Positions 1 to 13,589 of a DNA stretch of 64,000 nt are shown piece by piece. The notes beneath the pieces were generated by a model. The model saw only the letters and a program-made list of their open reading frames with translations. It searched no databases and had not been told where the DNA came from. Where the stretch lies: the NCBI RefSeq assembly GCF_963506605.1, contig NC_083292.1, positions 39,742,001 through 39,806,000 of the forward strand, read 5' to 3'. The translations under genes were made by a program, and so were the position numbers. Source of the stretch: Zootoca vivipara (lineage: Eukaryota). Each line of letters begins with the position of its first letter. Within the stretch, counting starts at the first letter, position 1.

Positions 1-576
1 CATCGCATGCCCCTCCTTCCCTGTCCTCCATCTGGGCATGTTCAGAATCCAAGGACACAATCCACCTTGGCTGAAAAACACCCAGGGAGCTCCTGATTGT
101 TCCTCTGCAAGCCCCGCAGGCATTGACCACACTAGCAAGCAGTTGCTGTTTTTATTATCATGATGAGATGTATTGCTCACCCTACACCACAAGGCCTCGG
201 GGTGGGTGACAACAGTGTACAACGCAGTATAAATTCACTGTTGCATTGAATGTACAAGATGCAGGGAGGTTAAGGATCTGGCCTGCTGGCTATCTCCAGC
301 TTCCCCTCACCCCACCCCACCCCCTCCCAGGGAATCTGTGATTTAGGAACTCCCACAAGATTTGCAACGTTCACGAAAGCGGCAAGCACTCGGCCACACG
401 TGTTGATCTGGTACGTGGCCTGCCAGGTTCTCCCTGTTGTGCCAGGTAGGGAACTTAAAGAGTTTTAATCATCTTCCCAGCATTAGTTTTTTGTGCTCAA
501 GTTAGGGCATTTCGCAGACTGTCCTACTGAAAAACTGTATTTACACACGCACCGTAGATCTGCACCATCAGTTTAC

Positions 577-3500
577 CTTTTCGCCAGTGTGGGTCTGCAG
601 CCTCGGCAGTTTCCCTTCCTGACGTAACTAAGAGCAAAAAAAAACAGAAGAGAGGGTCAAGGATGAGCGAGACAGCTTCCATATTGTCCCACTCAGCCCA
701 GCAGCGCAGGTGGACCGAGGCTACAGGAATACCCATATCCATATTGAGGAGGGGTGTGAAAAAAATTATTCACATTCAGGAGAAAGCAGATAGAGAATCT
801 ATTCTCCCTCGCATATAATACGAGAGCACAGGGCCATGCAATGAAGCTAGATATTGGAAGATTCAGGACAGAACTTTTTCATACAGCACTTTTCATAAAG
901 CACTTTTTCATACAGCAAATAATTAAATGATGCTGCCACAGAAAGTATGTTGATGTCCACTCATCCCTGGAGGTGAAGCCTATCAATGGCTCTGCTCTGC
1001 TGTCACTGCCAGAAACTGCAGGAGATGTGGCTGTTGTGCTTGGGTCCTGCTTGTAGGACACCTGGTTGGCTGCTGTGAGAACAGGATGCTGGACTAGATG
1101 GGCCCCCCTTTGGCCTGATCCAGCAACCAAGGTCTTCCAGTGTTGTCATGGCACTCACCCGGTTTTCCTCCTCAAATATCTTCTTGTTTTCAGGGGAGGC
1201 GTAAACGGCTTTGTTCTGGTTGAGGAGACGGCTGCGGCCAAAAGATTTGGGCACCAGGACGGTGTCGCCTCGACTTCCCACATCTGCAAAAGAGAAACCT
1301 GGAATGTTTCTGCCTGCAAAGCGGGGTAGGAAGTAAAGCGCTCTCCCAGAACATAGGGCAGGAGAGAGAGAGAATGCTCCCTTTACAAAACACACCCCAT
1401 GTACAATTCCTTCCTGGAAATCCCGGCTCAATTTTTTTTAAAAAAACTAAGGCAGGAGAGAAGTTTCCAGCCTGTATCACAACAGTTCCTAACCCGATGT
1501 TCTCCAGATGGTTTCAGACTACCCTCTACTAAAGATACTTGCATATATTTAACTGCACTATCCTAGTATCTATGTTTGGATGAAGATGTGATTTAGTAAA
1601 GTAAAACATGAACAAATAAATATATTGGAGCTATTTTTTGTTTTAATATAAAGCACAAAGTCCACAGAAAGCCATGGACCCCAATGAAGGAAAATCAACT
1701 TAGAAACATGTTTATTGGATGCTTTGCAAGGAATGAGAGGGCAAGTCCTTGCCTCTTGGGAGGGGAGCTACAATCTAGAAATCAGCACAAGGAAGTCAGC
1801 AGGAAGGAGAGGGAGGCAGGAGGAGAACATTTTTATTTTATGTATAAGGTCAAAACTGCAACATAGCCCAGTGGCTGAGTGTGAACCGCAAAGCCCCCAC
1901 CCCCAAATTCCCATGTTCCCTCAGGTGTGAACACCTGAGTCCCTGTGTGCCTGCCCTGTACCAGTCAGGGACACCCAAGAAAGTTGAGTGTTGGAAGATT
2001 CAGACCAAAAAAAGAGAGGGGCAGGCTACTTTTATGCAGTGCATAAAGAATAAACTATGAAACCTGCTGCTACAGGAGGTAGTGATGGCCACCAATTTGG
2101 GTGGCTTTTAAAGAAGGTGGAGCAAATTCGTGGAATATAAGGCTATCCATTGCTCCTAGCCAGCATGGCTGTGAATCCTGGAAACTGCAGCAGGAAAGGG
2201 GGTGCTGTTGTGCTCGGGTCAACCCATCATTTTATTTGTACGCTTTCTAAAGTTGAAACCGTGCTTAAGGCGGCTTGCAGCATGTAAAAAAATGGCAGAT
2301 TCACAAACATAACAAAAGCAGTAATAAACACTAGTTAAAAAAAATCAAAAAGTACACATTGAACAACTGCCACACAAATCGTGAGATCTAAAATAAAGAT
2401 GCAAAAAATTAATGTCCACCACAGCCACACACCCCCCCTCTCTTAAACAACACCCCAGCCCAAGGGTCTGTTCAGCAGTCTCAGGTTTTTGTAGCTGGAG
2501 TCAGTAAGGACTGTGCCATCCCAGGTCAGACGGGAAAAGGCCGGCAAGGCAGAGGGCAGGACTCCCAGGACTCCCAGCCAAGATGGGCCCTGCCTGCAGA
2601 TTTCCCAAAGGCATCTGTTTGGCCACTGCGAGGACAGGATGCTGAGCTAGATGGGCCACTGGCCTGATCCAGCACGCTCTTCTTGTGTTCTTTAAAGGAA
2701 AAAAAGCATGTAGCCCTCCTAAAAAGAAAGTTACGGAGCAACATGGGCAAGTAGCTTCCAAGTGATTTCTGTGAAATGGCCGCAAGTGCGATGAGGCCTC
2801 TGTGTCTATTTTTCCTGGTGATGAGGAATGCTCCCTGCTGAGATAGATAGCAACAACGTCTGCTCTTGTGTGTGTGCGCCCGTGTAAAATCATTATTGTG
2901 TGATTGTCACAATCAGGACTAGCAAGACAACAGCTGACTTCCTAATATGAGGATAAGGTTTTTGGGAGCAGCTGTCTATGTGGAAGCCATTTTGTATTAT
3001 GCCATACCCCCCCCCCAAACAGCCATTTTGTGACTGGCTCCTCCAGCACCCTCTCTCCAACTTCAGCATGTTCCCACTGGTGCAAAAAAGGGCTTGCTAC
3101 CCCTGTGTTAATTCCTTACTCTTTAAAAATGAACCAGGAGCAAAGGCACATGATAATCTGACTTAAGCGTTCACACAAAAGGATGCCTGCCCCAAGCTTA
3201 ATTCGGATTAGCAGGTGCTTCTGCAGAACGGCACCGGGTGCGGGAGTAATAAGGGGAGCAACGTACCGTCCACGGTTTGGGTGAGGATGAGCTCCAGAGG
3301 CTCCTTGGGCTTGTGCTTGGTGTCCTCCAACAAGCGGTAGACCTTATACCGGCGGTGCTTAATCCGAGGCGCCCGGCCCACCTTGCTCAAAGGCACCTTC
3401 CACCAACGCTCCACGATGCACGTTTCCTGAGCAGCGGAGACAGAGAACTTGGGAGAAGCCACCACCACCTCCGCTCTGACACAGCCACTCGGCCTGCCTC

Positions 3501-5796
3501 CTCGCTACTCCCTGTTAGGAAGTCCCATCTCTTAAAACAAATGTTCTAGTCCTCAGGGTTCAAAGACAAGCATAGGAAGCTGCCTTGGACCAAAAGCCAG
3601 TTCCTTTTTTTTTAAAAAAAAAATTATTAGCTATATGCTTATTACATACATACGAAAAGGAATACAATTACATAAATTATAAAAATAAAATCCCAAAAAT
3701 ACAAAAAAAGAACAGACAAAAATCCCAAAAATACAAAGTGGGGAAAATAAAATAAAAAGAATAAGGATATACAAGAAAAAAAGAAAGAAAAGAAAAAAGG
3801 TTGACTTCCTTCAACCACTATACGGGTTCTCTAATCTCATATTTTGGTTGTCTGTAATCATTTTTTACTTTGTGAAGAGGCAATTTGTTTACCTGTGAAC
3901 TTTTTAGCCTAGGCTAAGCCAATCATAATTTTGGGAACCAATTTTCTTCATATAATTTGTAAAGACCTCCAATTCTCTCCTGATTTTTTTCAAAAGCCAG
4001 ATCCTTTGGTCTATCTAGCTCAGGATTGCCTGCACTGACTGGCAGCAGCTCTCCAGGGCTTCAGGCAGGGGACTCTCCCAGAAGTACCTGGAGATGTCAG
4101 GGATTGAACCTGCCACTTTCTGTATGCAAAGCACACGCTCTGTCACTGAGCAATTTTTGGGGGGGGGGAGAGAGAAGGGGCCTATCTCAATGGGACAGGA
4201 TCTGAATTGCATGTGGAAGGTCCCCGGTTCAATCCTCAGCATCTTCAGGTACGTCTGGGAATGTCCCCCTGCCTGGAACCCTGGATAGCCGCTGCCAGCC
4301 AGTGTAGACGCCATGGAGATACACTGACCAAGGTTCAGAGGAAGAATATGGCAGCTTCCCATGTTCCTCTTTGAACCAGCCCTTTACCCAGAACGATGAG
4401 GACTGAAAACTTCCTTTATTTTCAAAGGGCCATAGCTCCATTCTTAAAGGTAGCATGGACATATCTTATATACAGTGCTTTTTTTCTGGGGGTGGGGGAT
4501 GGCACAGGGGTATGCATTCCCCTAAAGATTTTGTGGAACTTTGTACTTTTGTCCATTTACTGTATTTATTTTTCCTGATTTGAACGGTAAAATGGTGGTT
4601 TTCTTGAGTCAAAATGAGAGTACCCCTAAACATTTTCTGTCTCTCTCTGAATTTCCTCACAGTCACCCCACTCCAGAGCAACCCTAGAGCCCCCCATCTG
4701 CATTCTCCCTTCTGCATTTTGTCCCAACTGCATCCCCTTACCGAAAAAAAAGTCTGCTCTTCAAGGCAGCATACACCTAGATTTAAATACTGTACACAGC
4801 AAAACACGACCACGTGCTTATCTTGTGGTCCAAAAGCAACCCCAGAGGACTCCCCCCCCCCCAAAAAAAACACCTTTGCTCTCCCCCATCTCCTTTGTCT
4901 AAACTTACACCCCCTGGGGAATCGGAAGACAGCAGAGACATACCTGCACTGTAAAAATAAAATAAAATAAAACAATTCCTTCCAGTAGCATCTTAGAGAC
5001 CAACTAAGTTTGTCATTGGTATGAGCTTTCATGTGCATGCACACTTCTTTCTGTTTCAGTGTATCTGAAGAAGTGTGCATGCACACGAAAGCTCATACCA
5101 ATGACAACCTTAGTTGGTCTCCAAGGTGCTACTGGAAGGAATTGTTTTATTTTGTTTGGACTACGGCAGACCAAAAAGGCTACCTGCCTGTAACTTGCAC
5201 TGTAAAGACATAAATGCACAGAGTCCATGGAACACCTCTCTGAGCTCCCCCCTAAAAAAAGCAATCCCAGGGCTCCCAATCTGCACTGCCCCCCCCCATC
5301 AACCTATTCATAAAAGCAGCAAACAAAGGCATAGATTTAAGTGTAGATTAAATCAATGCACCCACCCACCCATATGCCCCCTGAGACTCCCCTCCCCCCA
5401 AAGCAACCCCCAGAGACACCCCCAGGTCCACTCCGCCCTGTAATTTCTCTGAAATGACCTCCAAAAGAGTCTCCTCTTAAAGGCTCCCATTTAGATAGAC
5501 ATCAAACACACCCCTGCCCCCTTTCGCCCCCTCAGCAGTCTCCTCAAAGCGACCCCCCCTGCACCCCACCCCCTATATTTCTCCCAAAATCTACCCCTGA
5601 ATTTTAAAATATGTACTAAAATCACTGTCGGATGGGCCCACAAAGCAACCCCCCGGCCCCCCACCTCCCTCTCCCCATGCATTTTACCCCCCTCCTTCCT
5701 CACCAGGGGGGCAGAGAGGCGGAGCCCCCTGCGCACGAGCGGGACCCCCAAGGAGGCCCCTGCCAGGATCAGGCCCCTCGCCGCCGCCGCCAGCAT
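577..5796 (-). CDS. MRPL9: Mitochondrial ribosomal protein L9 (bL9m), coding exons 1-4; gene continues beyond the window start
   Basis: Exons 5796-5704 ([31 protein letters not shown], presequence-like), 3426-3267 ([53 protein letters not shown]), 1283-1159 ([42 protein letters not shown]), 627-577 ([17 protein letters not shown]). All GT-AG with consistent phases 0/1/0; the motifs VERWWKVPL and [10 protein letters not shown] are typical of MRPL9. Confidence 0.95.
4968..5155. mobile_element. Penelope-like element terminal-repeat remnant forming a long inverted repeat, containing a minimal hammerhead ribozyme
   Basis: Arms about 4968-5047 and 5069-5150 are near-perfect reverse complements. 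The right arm has GTAT-CTGAAGA-A-GTGTGCATGCACAC-GAAA-GC-TC-ATAC. Confidence 0.75.
5061..5098 (+). ncRNA. Minimal type I hammerhead ribozyme motif
   Basis: CUGAAGA core 5065-5071, stem II GUGUGC/GCACAC 5073-5086, GAAA 5087-5090, palindromic AGCU in place of stem III, UC cleavage site, stem I GUAU/AUAC. Confidence 0.65.
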
Positions 5797-5960
5797 CGTC
5801 CTTCCACGCACGCGCCTCGCCTCGCTCCGCGCAGGCCCCCGAGAAGCCTCGGCCTCGCCTGGCTCCGCCCGCCGGGGTGGGTCGACCGCGGGGCGGGCAG
5901 CGCGAGAGGGAGGGGCCGGCGGGGACACCCAGCACGCTTTCTTCCCCCAGGGTTTATTTG
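5630..5960 (-). promoter_or_regulatory. CpG island / GC-box promoter of MRPL9, head-to-head with OAZ3
   Basis: CpG-dense stretch around the MRPL9 ATG (5796) with GGGGCGGG and CCGCCC boxes at about 5865-5900. Confidence 0.7.
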
Positions 5961-6142
5961 CTCTTTTCTCTCTTTCCCTTGCCTACCGTGACACGGTAGC
6001 AAAAACCCACCAACCTACCCCCCTCCAAAAAAAATAAAAGCATGTCAAGTGGGGCCACTGAGCATATGCAGAGTGCAAAAATTCTTTTTTGCAGTCCTTT
6101 GCTGCAACCTGCTGAGTAATCTGTTCATATCCACTAGTTATT

Positions 6143-6862
6143 CCTTACGGAAATAAGCACTTAAGGAAAATTTAATGAAGATGATGTATAGGTGGTATTT
6201 GACGCCGTCTAAACTTGCTAAAAAGTATAGAAATCAAAATAAGGAATGTTGGAAATGTAAGGAAAAGGAGGGGAATTTTCTTCCATATTTGGTGGACTTG
6301 TACTAAGGTTAAAGCCTACTGGGATATGATATATAATGAACTGGAAAAGGTTTTTAAAAATAACTTTATTAAAAAACCAGAGGCGGTTTTGTTGGGTATA
6401 ATTGGAGAAGAAATTCCCAAAACAAGATATAAATTTGTTTATGTATGCTACCACAGCTGCAAGGATACTTTTAGCCCAGAAATGGAAGCAGCAGGAATTT
6501 CCAACATTGGAAGAATGGCAGATGAAAATGATGGAATATGCAGAACTGGTGAAGCTGACGGGGAAGATACGAAATCAACGTGACGAGCTGTTTGAAAAGT
6601 GAATTTAGACAATATATGAGAGAACATTGTAAACATTTGAAAACGCTTGCAGGTTTGAGTTAAAATATTTTATAATGCTAATTTTTGGAATCTCTTTACA
6701 ATTATTAAGGTAAAGCATGAAAGAAGGTAAATAGGTTGATATACGGTAGAAATGCTAAGTTGTAAGTGATTATTTATGAAAGCCAAATAATTTTATCGGA
6801 TTTTAACGGATTGTGATTATGGTAAAAATAATGTAAACTCAATAAAAATTATTATTATAGAA
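6143..6862 (+). mobile_element. 5'-truncated L1-type LINE (ORF2 C-terminal Cys/His region plus 3' UTR), frameshifted
   Basis: Peptides [25 protein letters not shown] and FMYATTAARILLAQKWK in shifting frames; AATAAA near 6841. Flanked by a 16-bp direct repeat ATA(T/C)CCACTAGTTATT at 6127-6142 and 6863-6878. Confidence 0.8.
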
Positions 6863-6932
6863 ATACCCACTAGTTATTATTCATATTACTATTGCCACCA
6901 TGATCATCATTAAATTTACTGATGCCCTTGAC

Positions 6933-7315
6933 GCCGGTGCGGTTGGGCTATGTGCCCGCAGGATGGGCAAAGGGGGCAGCAACTGGGGCCCAGCACAGAA
7001 GCCTGGCGAGTAATGGGGTAATGATCTCCCTTGGTTTGAATAGGTTGGACCAGTGGCTCTGGGCTGTAGGCCGGCTCCAAATGTTGGGAAACAAGATCCT
7101 AGTCCTCATGATTGCAGCCGAAAGCTTTGCTGTTGGGCTCTGGGCTCCAGGCAGGCTACCAAGTGATAAGACCACAAGATTCTAGTCCTTAGGATAGCAG
7201 CTAAAACTCTTGCTTGAAACTGAGAGTGGGGTGGGGGGGCAGGATGTTTGGGGGTGTGCGCCGTTTGCTGTGTCCCAAAATCTTGGCTGCGTCCATCCAC
7301 AATGGCCATGCTCTG
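6933..7315 (+). pseudogene. Inverted duplicated fragment of a TDRKH coding exon and the following intron (source about 20846-21450)
   Basis: Colinear with the reverse complement of 20846-21450, e.g. GGTGCGGTTGGGCTA, GCCCAGCACAGAAGCCTGG(C/T)GAGTAATGGGGT, TAGGTTGGACCAGTGGCTCTGGGCTGT, CAGGCAGGCTACCAAGTGATAAGACC. The donor GT has become GC and the exon part has indels. Confidence 0.9.
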
Positions 7316-8129
7316 GAGCAGGAAGACTCACAAAAGTCACAAATTAGCAGGATGCTCTCAAGTGACTCTGAGCGTGCACCGAGTGTGCTTCTCCTTTCCT
7401 TTGTGCAAGACAGCATAAAGGTGATTTTAAAATGTATTTTAAAAGTCCTAAGGACAAAGTGCCTCAGAATAAGCACACTGTGTCTTTCTCTCACCAACAA
7501 CCCCAACAGAACTGAGGCTCTTCAAAAAGGAAGGAAGGGCAACGTGCTTCTGAGCGTGTGCAGAGTTCACCCCTGAAGATAATTCAGTGCTTTTTAAAAA
7601 GACGTGCAGAAGGTCCCAGGCTCGGTCTCCAGCATCTCTTAGACCCCGGCCTGAAACCCTGGAGAGCAGCTGCCAGTCAGTGTGGACAATACTGAGGGCA
7701 GACCCATACCATAGATATAAAGCACACCCATGCATATTTACACTTGACTTCCCCCAAGGAATGCTGGGAACAGTAGTTTGTTAAGGATTCTGCGAGGGAG
7801 GGAAATTACAGCTCCCATGATCCTCCTGGGGAAGGAGGATGTGCTGGATATCTCTGTGTTGGATGTGCTTTAAATGTTAACAGCGGGCATCCAAAGGGGT
7901 GCAGACCCAGAGCCAGGTGTCCTTATGAGGGAGAGGATGCCGTGGTACCCAGGAGTGGGAGGAGCTTCGCCTGGGTGTGGCCAGGAGGGAGCATGGCCTC
8001 ATAATGATGCTTGTGACACAGCCAAGTTGCCATGGGGCAGAATCTCACACAGGTCACAATAGGGGTCCCTTGGGTACTTAAGGCAGGGGCCCTGCCACCT
8101 AGGACCCACTTTGCCTGGGGCAGGAGGCA

Positions 8130-11100
8130 CTGCCCAGCAAAACGCAGCGGAACCGGGCACCCACAACCACCCTTTCTTGGACCAAGAAGGGGGGGATACG
8201 GAACTGCCTTTATCCGCTAGCATTCTCCAGCGCCTCTTTCTGCTCCGTCAGCAAGCACCGCCTTAGATATCGGCGGAAAATGACGCCCAGTGGCAAGAGG
8301 TAAGGGGGGGGCTACCTTGGGCACATTGGTGCCACATAGGTACCTTGGAGGACATGCTCCCCCCCAATATATTGCTAGGCACATATAGCGACCACGGCCA
8401 AGGATCAAGGACTATGGGAGTGGCTGCATGTCCCCCATCCCTGTATTAGGACTGGAAACTTTTGGACCCCCAGATTTTGTTGGGACAGCTGCCTGGAGAT
8501 GAAGAAGCACCATAGTTCAGTGGTGGCACAGCTGCTTGTCATGCAGAAGGCCCCGGGTTCAAGGCCCGGCATCTCCAGGCAGAGCTGTGTCAGAGACATG
8601 TTTTCAGAACGATGAGGACTGGGATCTTGCTTCATTTTTTAAAAGGACACACCTCAGTGGTAGAGCATCTGCCTTGCAAGCAGAAGCTCCCAGGTTCAGT
8701 GCTCCCACCATTTCTAGGTAGGGTTGGAGGAGACCCCTCTCTGAAATCCTATTATGCTGCTGCCAGCCTGTGTAGACAATATTGAGCAAGATGGACCAAT
8801 GGTCTGGCTCCGCTTAAATCCGCTCGTTTCCTATTTCCCTATTAAAGTCAGCCCATTATATTGCAGGTATTAATGTTGCACAGCTTGAAGCAACTGGAAG
8901 CATACAAACTGACTCCTTGTTGCCCAGATCCATAGGTTTGATTTGAGCTTTACTTGCAGGACTTTCTTCAAAACAGAACAAAAACATCAGAGATACATCC
9001 AGATAATTCCATGCACTTACCTTGTGCATGTCTAGCACTGGCTCGGCATCTTAAAAATAACTTGGAACAGGATTGAGATCAAAACTCTTCTCTGTCCCGC
9101 ATTCTAGCCTGAGATTGCATGCTCCTGGAGAGCTTCCTTATTGTATCTTGCTTCCACTCCGACTGGGAACAAAGGACTAAAGACATCTCCCTTTCAAAAT
9201 GAGGATTTGCAACCCAATACCTCCTGTGTGATCTAAAGTTAAACACATTGTCAGAACTAGCAGATAACAGTAACAGTTAATTTCCAACCCACTGAGAAGC
9301 TCAGAGGAAAATCTCCCATGTTAAAGCCTTCAGGCATTCTCCATTTAAATGTGAATTGAGCCATACTTTACACATTATTATTCAGAACTATGGGGCCTAA
9401 TGTCAAGTTTCTAGCCCCTTGTGTTCAAGGCACTTGCCTATTTCAGAACCTGCTTCCCGGGCTTATCCACGCCATCTTCTTTTCTTGTTTCCATTCTGCG
9501 GCACAGCTCAAACCTTACCCAATGTGAGAGCTTGAGTATCCGGCCCCGTTACTGCCCGCAGTGCTCCTGAGTTCGTGGGCGGCTGCCCAGACAGGAGAAG
9601 GAGCCTCGAAGGAGACGAGGCGAGCCTTAAAGAGGTATATAAGGTAGGCTTCTTCTGCCTCAGGCCTTTCTGGCCTTGCATCTGATCAGTATTCATCATT
9701 ACTACTGCTGTCACAATAGACCACCATCTGCTTGCATGATGCTGTACAAAAGTACAGAGGGAGGGTCCCTGCCCCAATGAGCTTACACTCTGAAATTTGA
9801 CAACTGGGCCTTTCCCCCTATTATATATCTACCCCACCTTTTTTCTCCAAAGAGCTGAAGGTAGCATACACAGTTTGCCCCATCAGAGAAATATACTGTG
9901 CTTAAAGTCCTGAAGAGCTGCTGCCAGTCGGTGTAGACAACACTAGGTTTGATGGACTCGTGGTCTGACTCGATACAAGGCAGATTTCTCCAGGGAGAAT
10001 ATATTCATTCCGTCTTTATTGACAAAATTTAGATAAAAATCACAAAAAGGGGTGGGTGGGAACATAAAATATTTGCAATACAGACCTATTGAAGGCATAT
10101 AAACCATATAAAAGACTCAGTAGCCACCATTAAGTAGTTTTAAATTAGACTTTGAAAAAAATCTCAACTAAATAGTCTTAAACCATCTCAGTAGTTTTTT
10201 TTGGGGGGGGGGCAATATCACCCCTCAGCGGATATTGGATTACAGATTCTTTGCAAATAGATACTTTAAGCTTCAAAGGAGTCGCCAGCAGGTCTCTGTG
10301 AAGAGTGTCAATTTCACAAACTGAGTTATTGGGGGGGGGGGAGGTTGTGGACTCTCACCTCTTGTTTTGCTAGTTTCCTTCCTTTGACTGGTTTAAATTC
10401 ATTGCATGGGATTGGCCTATACAGTGGTACCTCGGTTTATGAACACAATTGGTTCTGGAAGCCTGTTCATAAACTGAAGCGTTCATAAACTGAAGCGAAC
10501 TTTCCCATTGAAAGTAATGGAAAGTGGATTAATCCGTTCCAGACGGGTCCGCGAAGTACTCAACCTGAAGCGTACTTAACCCAAAGCATGGGTGTAATTG
10601 GTTCCGGAAGTCTGTTGATAAACTGAAGCGTTCATAAACTGAAGCGAACTTTCCCTTTGAAAGTAATGGAAAGTGAATTAATCTGTTCCAGATGGGTCCA
10701 TGGCGTTCGTAAACTGAAAATTCGTAAACCGAGGTGTTCATAAACCAAGGTTCCACTGTATATGACCCTCTGGGGTCCCTTCCAAACTCTACAATTTTCT
10801 AGCGAAATGTTGCCCTAACTTGTGCAAACCAGCTGACATCTCCCTCTTGCGCAGGGATGGAGGCATTTTAGCAAATCAATCCATCAATCACCGGCACTCA
10901 CCACCTGAAAGTTGGAAAGAAGGGGGATTTTGCTAAGGTGTTTTCTAACCAGTAGTTGCAAACCTTTCATCTAAAAACGCCACAGGCTGGGAATCTCACT
11001 GTTTTCGCCGGCGAGCGCCAACGTCCCGACCAGCCGGTACAGTTGGACTTCCATTTTGCCCACGGCAGCCAGGGGGTCAGCCACTGGCACGGCCTCCTCC

Positions 11101-13230
11101 AGGCACGCACGGTTTTCCTCGACACGCCTCACCTTGCCCTGGACTGCAACAGCCGCGAGAGGTGAGAGCAATTTCCTGCTGCAACTGGGTGTCAGAAACG
11201 GGTGGCTTTGTCACCCAACTAAGTTGCACGCGGAGTAGACCCACTGAATGTCCCTACATTGGCTGTGCCTGTTCTTTTCAAGACGTCTGCTCTGAGCAGG
11301 ACTAACGTTGGAAACAGCCCAGCGTTTTCCAGCAACTTTAGAGACAACCACTCGGCCAGGTTCCAGCTCTTGTGGGGGGAAATATCGGAAAGCGAGGGAG
11401 GCACTAGTTCAAAACCAAAGGAACCCAAACCCAAGGCCCTGAGGATTTATTTATGGGCAGAGATGCTGCTTAGGGCTATCGCCTGCACCTGACCGTGGGA
11501 ACCTAATATTTACATAAGGAGAAAAAAAGTTGACCCCCCCCCAAAAGGCTGGGGTTGAACTTCAGAAACAGCCCAGAGTTCTGGGCATGCTCAGTGATAA
11601 TGGGATGCTAACTTTTGCGTAATGGAAGAACTGGAGGGAGGGAGGAAATGGAATAGAGTATCTTCAACAAGAGCTCCTTGCCCTGCAATTTTTTGCTGCA
11701 GCTAACATCAGTAGATTTCCCTCTACCGAAATGGTCGATTTGAACCACTAGCAAACTTGGTGCTATGCTTTAGGCTCCGTAAAAAATTGTGGGGTGTGTT
11801 CAAAAGGAGTGGGGTCAGATTGGGGCACTTATGTCTGGACCTCTAATTTAAAATGAAAACAACAAAACCCACATTTTTCTGTATGTAGAAATCTAGCATG
11901 TCAGGGAGAAGAGTAGCCTTTTCTGTGACAGTCTGGTTTTCTAGGTCCAGGGAATTCTTTGGATGGATTCAGTCATGGGAGCTCTCACCCACAATTCAGT
12001 GGTACAGGTCAGGTTGAACACCTTACTGAAGACTAGTCCCTTTGCAAGCCCTGCTTGCAAAAGAACAGCACCCTTAATAATAAGCGCTTAATATGGATCC
12101 TGTGGCCGTTTCTGCTCCTAGCCTGACTGCAACGCTGGAATACGTGGAAGAAAACACAGAGGCGGACCAGGTGCTTGTTAACTTCCACAAGTCCCGACGG
12201 GACAGGGGTAAGAAAAAAAAAATAATCCCCTTGCTAACAGAATCTGGGTTTTGAGTCCTGGACTATTCCACATGCCAGAAATCTGGAAATGATATAGAAA
12301 AGGGCAAGGGTGTGTGTGTCCCAATTCCAAATTTGGGCTTTTATTAGGCCAGAAAAACCATCATAAAAAAGCATGCTAGGGCCATAGCATTTTGGTCGAG
12401 CGTCATCCCTAGTTTGGTCACCAGGTAGGTCCAGGAGAGAGCTTTGCCTGAAACTGCAGAGCTGCTGCCGGTCAGTGCAGTGTCCTTATGTTCTGATTCA
12501 AAGCCACATTTTTTCCAGAACCATGAGGACTAGAATCTTTACTTTATTTCAAGGGTGTCCCAGGTTCAATGCCCAACGGCATCTCCAAGTAGGGTCAGAA
12601 TCTACCTGTCCTTAGAGTGTGAGGTGGAAGGCAGAGTGAAAACCAGTTTGCTACTGGACCAGTCTCAAGATTCTCATGCTCATTCAAGCTTGGTGTCCAA
12701 ATATGCTTCACCACGATCCTCTGGCGGGGCGCTTTCAGAGGTTGCTTGCAACCCTCTGAGATTCAGTCAGCTCTGTGGCCCTGCGGAACTTCTTGCCACT
12801 AGAGGTTGGGCAGGAATAATCCCTGTCTTGCTTTAGATGTCTCCTGAGAACTGTTAATCTGACAGGCCTCTGCCGTGTGGTTTTCTTTTTACAGCCAGCA
12901 CCGATGGATGTTTCTACTGCTCTTAATGGAAGCGTGTATATACACTGCATTTTTATGAAAGTGTGGCTTGACAAACATGGAGAAATTGGATAAACCAGAG
13001 GAAAGGCTCTGGAGTGCGGGGAAAGATCATCTTGCCCTTGGTTTCCTAATCATCTTCTTTTTCTCCCCTCGCTCGAAGGAGACTTGCTACGAGCCTTTGG
13101 CTTCTTGGGTTTCAAGCTCATGCAGCCGGATCACCCTTCCCTTCCCCCCTGGGAGGACGTCATCTTCATGGCTTACCCCATGGAACGAGAACTTTACCAA
13201 CCGGAGGAGAATGAGAAGTGGAGGACCTGA
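8130..13230 (+). CDS. OAZ3: Ornithine decarboxylase antizyme 3; ORF1 and ORF2 joined by a programmed +1 ribosomal frameshift
   Basis: Exons 8130-8299, 9507-9643, 10986-11161, 12122-12207, 13079-13230, all GT-AG and in phase. ORF1 ends ...RPRYCPQCS-TGA (9568-9570). The +1 frame reads EFVGGCPDRRRSLEGDEASLKEVYK/AGNLTVFAGERQRPDQPVQLDFHF...HWHGLL...LDCNSRE/SLTATLEYVEENTEADQVLVNFHKSRRDR/GDLLRAFGFLGFKLMQPDHPSLPPWEDVIFMAYPMERE...KWRT*. About 239 aa from CUG 8130 or 189 aa from ATG 8280. Position between MRPL9 and TDRKH matches the mammalian order. Confidence 0.93.
9559..9571 (+). promoter_or_regulatory. OAZ3: Antizyme +1 frameshift site CAG TGC TCC TGA G
   Basis: UCC-UGA is the canonical vertebrate antizyme shift site. 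The +1 frame is open for exactly 25 codons to the donor at 9644 and splices in phase into AGNLTV. Confidence 0.92.
10422..10758. mobile_element. Tc1/mariner (Tigger-like) MITE in OAZ3 intron 2
   Basis: TIRs CAGTGGTACCTCGGTTTATGAAC / GTTCATAAACCAAGGTTCCACTG, TA on both flanks, and an internal direct duplication of about 120 bp. Confidence 0.85.
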
Positions 13231-13453: not shown

Positions 13454-13589
13454 CAGTGGTCCTCAACCTTGGGCCTCCAGATGTTTTTGGCCTACAACTC
13501 CCATGATCCCTAGCTAGCAGGACCAGTGGTCAGGAATGATGGGAATTGTAGTCTCAAAACATCTGGAGGCCCATGGTTGAGGACCACTG
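13454..13589. mobile_element. hAT-type MITE
   Basis: TIRs CAGTGGTCCTCAACC / GGTTGAGGACCACTG; perfect 8-bp TSD GCCTAGAA. Confidence 0.9.

Follow-up and report, generated by a model that had tools for sequence, protein, structure and literature searches.

The OAZ3 locus of the lizard Zootoca vivipara raises the question of whether its first reading frame (ORF1) is translated from a CUG codon, as in mammals, and how far the peptide thus encoded has been retained. In mammalian OAZ3, as described in PMC5009743 and PMC1874602, a CUG in frame with ORF1 accounts for a substantial share of initiation, p12 is the product when ribosomes terminate at the ORF1 stop, and frameshifting is low; PMC5009743 also reports that p12 binds MYPT3 in rodents, and PMC3105428 gives the context of the mammalian codon as AAA-CUG-C. 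The window analysed here, a stretch of 64,000 nucleotides, contains a CTG at 8130, and the reading preferred here, with a probability of about 0.68, is that this codon is homologous by position to the non-AUG start of mammals and that ORF1 likely begins at it; the ORF1 product would be a basic peptide of 77 residues. Ribosomes that pass the CUG would likely initiate at AUG 8280 by leaky scanning, which fits with the lack of any ATG within 8035-8279 (19 of 455 matched stretches are likewise ATG-free). From either start, a small share would likely shift +1 at UCC UGA and produce a full antizyme of 239 residues (27.4 kDa, from the CUG) or 189 residues (21.7 kDa, from the AUG), and expression would be expected in spermatids by analogy with mammals.

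The window holds the lacertid OAZ3 locus, and 8100-8299 is its exon 1 region. This identification rests on a search with exon 3 (five of eight candidates found, all named OAZ3 with PF02100, the ODC_AZ domain, in ORF2), on the divergent neighbour MRPL9, which is the neighbour of mammalian OAZ3 as well, and on exons 2-5, which agree, by eye, with the named Z. vivipara model P0094. Codons, frames and borders are read directly from the DNA and define five coding exons, the first spanning 8130-8299 (the others are in Table 1); ORF1 ends at a UCC UGA stop and ORF2 follows in the +1 frame, which is the arrangement of OAZ3. Exons 4 and 5 give weak ODC_AZ matches under the curated cut-off, and in run X1, from a related species, exons 3, 4, and 5 are joined within one contig. 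No second copy of exon 1 was found in the genome. A search for RNA runs matching 7900-9700 listed none. In three raw RNA runs labelled as this species (tissue unknown, about 6/100 of each run read), depth is zero over exons 1, 2, 4, and 5 and almost zero in the bin with the end of exon 3, which at this sampling speaks neither for nor against transcription. Multi-copy repeats at 7620-7790, 8520-8780, 10420-10760, and 13460-13580 show very high depth in RNA runs.

Table 1. Features of the OAZ3 locus in the window.
Feature	Position	Strand	Basis or remark
Exon of the divergent neighbour MRPL9	3250..3399	-	found in window
Upstream AUG exon of automatic RefSeq model P0094	6900..7009	+	spliced to 8252, CUG skipped
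Strong-context ATG 5' of the CUG, within GTTGCCATGG, not in frame with ORF1	8032..8220	+	62-codon ORF overlapping the CUG
In-frame TAG, closes the frame 10 codons 5' of the CUG	8100..8102	+	sequence
CTG, predicted non-AUG start of ORF1	8130..8132	+	matched by the first residue in human, rat, painted-turtle records
N-terminal extension, 50 codons, homologous to the mammalian 48-codon one	8130..8279	+	alignments; Tyr-rich core lost
Downstream in-frame AUG	8280..8282	+	start of most squamate models
Exon 1 donor GT	8300	+	read from sequence
Exon 2, ORF1 end and ORF2 start	9507..9643	+	AG/GT borders, homology
TCC TGA, antizyme +1 frameshift site	9565..9570	+	sequence; ORF2 in +1 frame
Exon 3 (ORF2)	10986..11161	+	homology; X1 contig joining exons 3-5
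Exon 4 (part of ODC_AZ domain)	12122..12207	+	homology; X1 contig
Exon 5, coding part up to stop	13079..13230	+	homology; X1 contig

The earlier note had placed the TAG, the CTG within GAGGCA-CTG-C, and the first following ATG correctly, and its assignment of the gene to OAZ3 is borne out by the exon 3 matches and the MRPL9 neighbour. Likewise, the basic ORF1 peptide that it had proposed has the expected composition, with 8.7 kDa, a pI of 10.7, and 15 K+R vs 1 D+E. The CTG lies in frame at the homologous position, in a GCA-CTG-C context with a purine (G) at -3, A at -1, and C at +4, and ORF1 measures 77 codons from it, vs 27 codons from AUG 8280. The likeness to mammalian OAZ3 as described in PMC1874602 and PMC5009743 comprises the in-frame CUG followed by Pro, the purine at -3, the C at +4, the downstream AUG, a distance of 25 codons from the RN-x-L-Y-P motif to that AUG, the UCC UGA +1 site, and the five coding exons. 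Conversely, the lizard extension has 50 rather than 48 codons with 38-42% identity and has lost the Tyr-rich middle, its -3 base is G instead of A, a strong upstream AUG stands at 8032, and the lizard start is a predicted one. The mouse testis OAZ3 band of 22 kDa reported in PMC2763286 has the size of the AUG form and counts against the CUG reading; this suggests that both recoding steps by a single ribosome may be uncommon.

The open frame alone is no evidence of coding, because 5451 of 22323 GC-matched stretches of the window (24%) are stop-free over 50 codons by chance, and the argument is carried instead by frame-specific homology. Against the N-termini of human, rat, opossum, and painted turtle, the frame-0 peptide scores 66, 77, 48, and 74, respectively, and for these four and the gecko frame 0 beats all 2000 shuffles in each case, whereas frames +1 and +2 give p values of 0.03-0.9 for the four N-termini. 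Moreover, among the 73 N-termini scored of 91 homologues (the remaining 18 rows, without an anchor, were left unscored), 24 attain in frame 0 the smallest p that 200 shuffles allow (0.005), and none does in +1 or +2. The 50 residues are 35-42% identical to mammalian, turtle, alligator, and gecko extensions, and in a comparison of 21 sequences the identity to the window reaches 90% or more in nine columns. In four frameshift-aware codon-level alignments (human, turtle, gecko, Podarcis), the human one begins at 8130 and has no shift, and every shift in the other three falls within 8081-8123, with none in 8130-8279, so that the CUG-to-AUG frame is both open and homologous; the similarity to the mammalian extension thus begins at this CUG, as had been claimed. 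Run X1 keeps the CTG and has neither an indel nor a new stop in 8130-8256, with a one-base insertion 10 nt 5' of the CTG; its contig covers 7740-8256 and ends at 8256 with no loose end, and the run has intronic contigs as well. The CTG is unchanged in three DNA runs labelled as Z. vivipara, though one of them may be the source of the window. Since shifts and indels sit only 5' of 8130 and frame-0 homology begins there, coding constraint, to judge from sequence comparison, starts at about the CUG.

The same extension could be a decaying squamate relic, kept open in lacertids by inertia, with translation almost only from AUG 8280, an unlikely reading but the one that survives best among the alternatives. 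Under this reading, the chance level of open frames noted above would suffice to explain the stop-free stretch, and the extension is indeed evolving faster than the antizyme core: between lacertids it is 78-85% identical, vs 95-96% for the ORF2 core, while mammals and turtles conserve the two about equally. The high peptide conservation that might have been looked for, Tyr-rich core included, is absent: with the identities given above, lacertids retain 1-2 Tyr (3 sequences) vs 8-12 in turtles, alligators, and mammals (17 sequences), the gecko having 4. Most substitutions in X1 are non-synonymous (6 of 8 in the extension, where 73% of sites are non-synonymous), yet they do not discriminate, because the share in X1 exon 3 is similar (5 of 7 among the substitutions listed). 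What inertia accounts for poorly is that 150 nt have remained unshifted against human, turtle, and gecko while the neighbouring 100 nt shift repeatedly, and that the nine columns have stayed near-invariant. Even if the CUG is used as preferred here, the function of the lacertid peptide may be weakened or changed, since its basic N-terminal motif and basic end are kept but the Tyr-rich middle is gone.

The relic reading draws further on other squamates, and here the claim that initiation and peptide are conserved across amniotes, made in the earlier note, proved too wide: the gecko model keeps the frame with Pro at the Leu (start) position, the boa has a degraded extension, Anolis is given the downstream AUG in its curated record and so lacks the extension there, the curated alligator records use an upstream AUG, and no bird name occurs among the 91 matches; in lacertids themselves the level of identity and the lost Tyr-rich core limit it too. 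This cross-amniote comparison rests on predicted proteins rather than on DNA, including the gecko Pro and the boa. Specifically, the boa model is homologous (69.9 vs a null maximum of 48.5), and its in-frame score is 47 vs 123-133 for turtle and gecko. Its protein scores slightly prefer frame 0 (46 vs 41), while the codon-level path has 8118-8237 in frame +1; a frameshift in the boa extension is not supported, because the gain from shifts (22.9) is inside the null (maximum 29.9, 25 shuffles), and degradation is what stands. For the Ahaetulla model an apparent match in frame +1 (p 0.035) was dropped, since it was not significant on retest and the stretch concerned looks like the upstream exon found in other snake models. 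In the P. lilfordi model, 5 residues are missing inside the extension, a gap which may conceal a break. The 91 matches come from 7997 scored candidates; salamander and caecilian models are present among them, and none of the three amphibian models scored matches the extension. Searches with an ORF1 profile recovered no squamate ORF1-only protein, either among 35 candidates (one match) or among 1.84 billion representatives (8 matches, three of them resembling repeat-rich chance matches).

It is possible, if doubtful, that p12 was an ancestral sperm protein of amniotes that has been eroded stepwise in squamates while the antizyme domain was conserved, with the lacertid upstream AUG switching between an in-frame start and a repressing upstream ORF. 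The steps would be the loss of the Tyr-rich core in lacertids, the change of the start codon in the gecko, and the degradation of the frame in snakes. If true, squamates would offer a natural experiment in which what OAZ3 does through p12 can be told apart from what it does as an antizyme. The question at stake is whether p12 or the frameshifted antizyme serves the sperm head-tail joint, and lineages that keep ORF2 with the extension lost or reshaped would offer a comparative test of the two roles.

The CUG mechanism is largely known, having been published for mammals and, among reptiles, already annotated in turtles. Frameshifted OAZ3 proteins have curated RefSeq records in Chrysemys (NP_001277417.1), Chelonia (NP_001277668.1), Pelodiscus (NP_001277504.1), Alligator (NP_001277473.1/NP_001277489.1), and Anolis (NP_001278927.1). 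In the Chrysemys and Chelonia records the first residue is M at a position that other turtle models give as L, and within Pelodiscus M stands in P0099 vs L in P0037; M vs L at one position implies that the curated turtle records carry an annotated non-AUG start, the codon being deduced from proteins and not from DNA. A RefSeq antizyme curation paper reportedly may already describe the reptile starts, and a literature search of partial coverage found nothing on initiation in lizard OAZ3. The Anolis record uses the downstream AUG, unlike the turtle records, and none of the lacertid records examined starts at the CUG: P0094 splices past it, and the others start in intron 1 or at an upstream AUG. 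The lizard extension, unannotated in the lacertid records examined, likely extends the known mechanism to lacertids, with a much changed extra peptide. This corrects the annotation of Z. vivipara and three related lacertids, whose automatic models skip the CUG or start elsewhere, and it adds a squamate to the evidence that traces the CUG extension back to the ancestor shared by mammals and reptiles.

The upstream AUG at 8032, missed by the first reading of the locus, lies 98 nt 5' of the CUG, and its ORF stops at TAG 8218. A second alternative, less probable than the relic, supposes that the mRNA includes this strong AUG, which would open a 110-codon ORF1 in other lacertids and, through the loss of one base, would have become a repressing out-of-frame upstream ORF over the CUG in the window. 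In two Podarcis models and run X1 the ATG is indeed in frame with ORF1 without stops, the frame being brought about in X1 by one extra base behind 8120, and the curated alligator records provide a precedent for upstream AUG usage. However, the upstream AUGs reached by turtle, alligator, gecko, and lacertid models are not the same and lie in various frames, and similarity at the protein level begins near the CUG. PMC1526716 describes a rare human -239 A>G variant that makes an upstream AUG, placed in the 5' UTR, two bases after a putative Inr. By our arithmetic from that text, the variant AUG lies about 97 nt 5' of the human CUG, nearly the distance found in the lizard, which lends the alternative some support; the Inr two bases 5' points the other way, as the AUG would likely be too near the cap, to judge from position only. 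If the positions, compared here by distance, are homologous, ATG 8032 would be at the transcription start and poorly used; it may thus be located at or before that start.

Within 8010-8062, TGTGACA and GGTCACA resemble CRE half sites, and GGTCACA aligns with the upstream AUG region of the turtle. A reading of GTTGCCATGG as an RFX X-box was abandoned, since 19 of 100 shuffles match as well. In PMC4498915, mouse Oaz3 is marked as a CREM target and not as an RFX2 target.

Lastly, it is very improbable that the true mRNAs begin in an upstream exon, at 6900-7009 or close to the MRPL9 promoter, and leave the CUG out: the P0094 join to 8252 has GT/AG borders, two snake models start with sequence resembling 5784-5897, and mammalian isoform-2 records have a different N-terminus, but the P. 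raffonei model translates this upstream region in a different frame and joins exon 1 at a different point, the homology of 8130-8251 would be unexplained if it were intronic, and the P0094 exon is probably a prediction artefact. The GC-rich 5784-5897 segment at the MRPL9 promoter matches the two snake N-termini with E values of 1e-7 and 8e-6, which suggests an alternative first exon from a promoter shared with MRPL9.

Around the two recoding sites, a hairpin 3' of the CUG is not significant (z -1.6; 13 of 200 shuffles). Antizyme 1 (structures 4zgz, 5bwa, 4zgy, 1zo0) resembles the lizard gene in its ORF2 domain and in having UCC UGA as the site of the +1 shift, and differs in having two AUG starts and both 5' and 3' stimulators, whereas an Rfam search matched no antizyme element in the lizard. 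The 79 nt from the shift site (9565-9643), one of four segments tested, form a more stable fold than 199 of 200 shuffles do (z -3.0), although antizyme 3 of mammals reportedly has no 3' stimulators. The Gln codon preceding the shift site ends in AG (9560-9561), with a C-rich tract 5' of it, and a splice from exon 1 to 9562 would skip 55 nt and join ORF1 and ORF2 in frame without frameshifting over 221 codons. Automatic models from snakes, an agamid, and mammals (P0013, P0021, P0045, P0055) adopt this 9562-type reading, and they are probably predictor artefacts.
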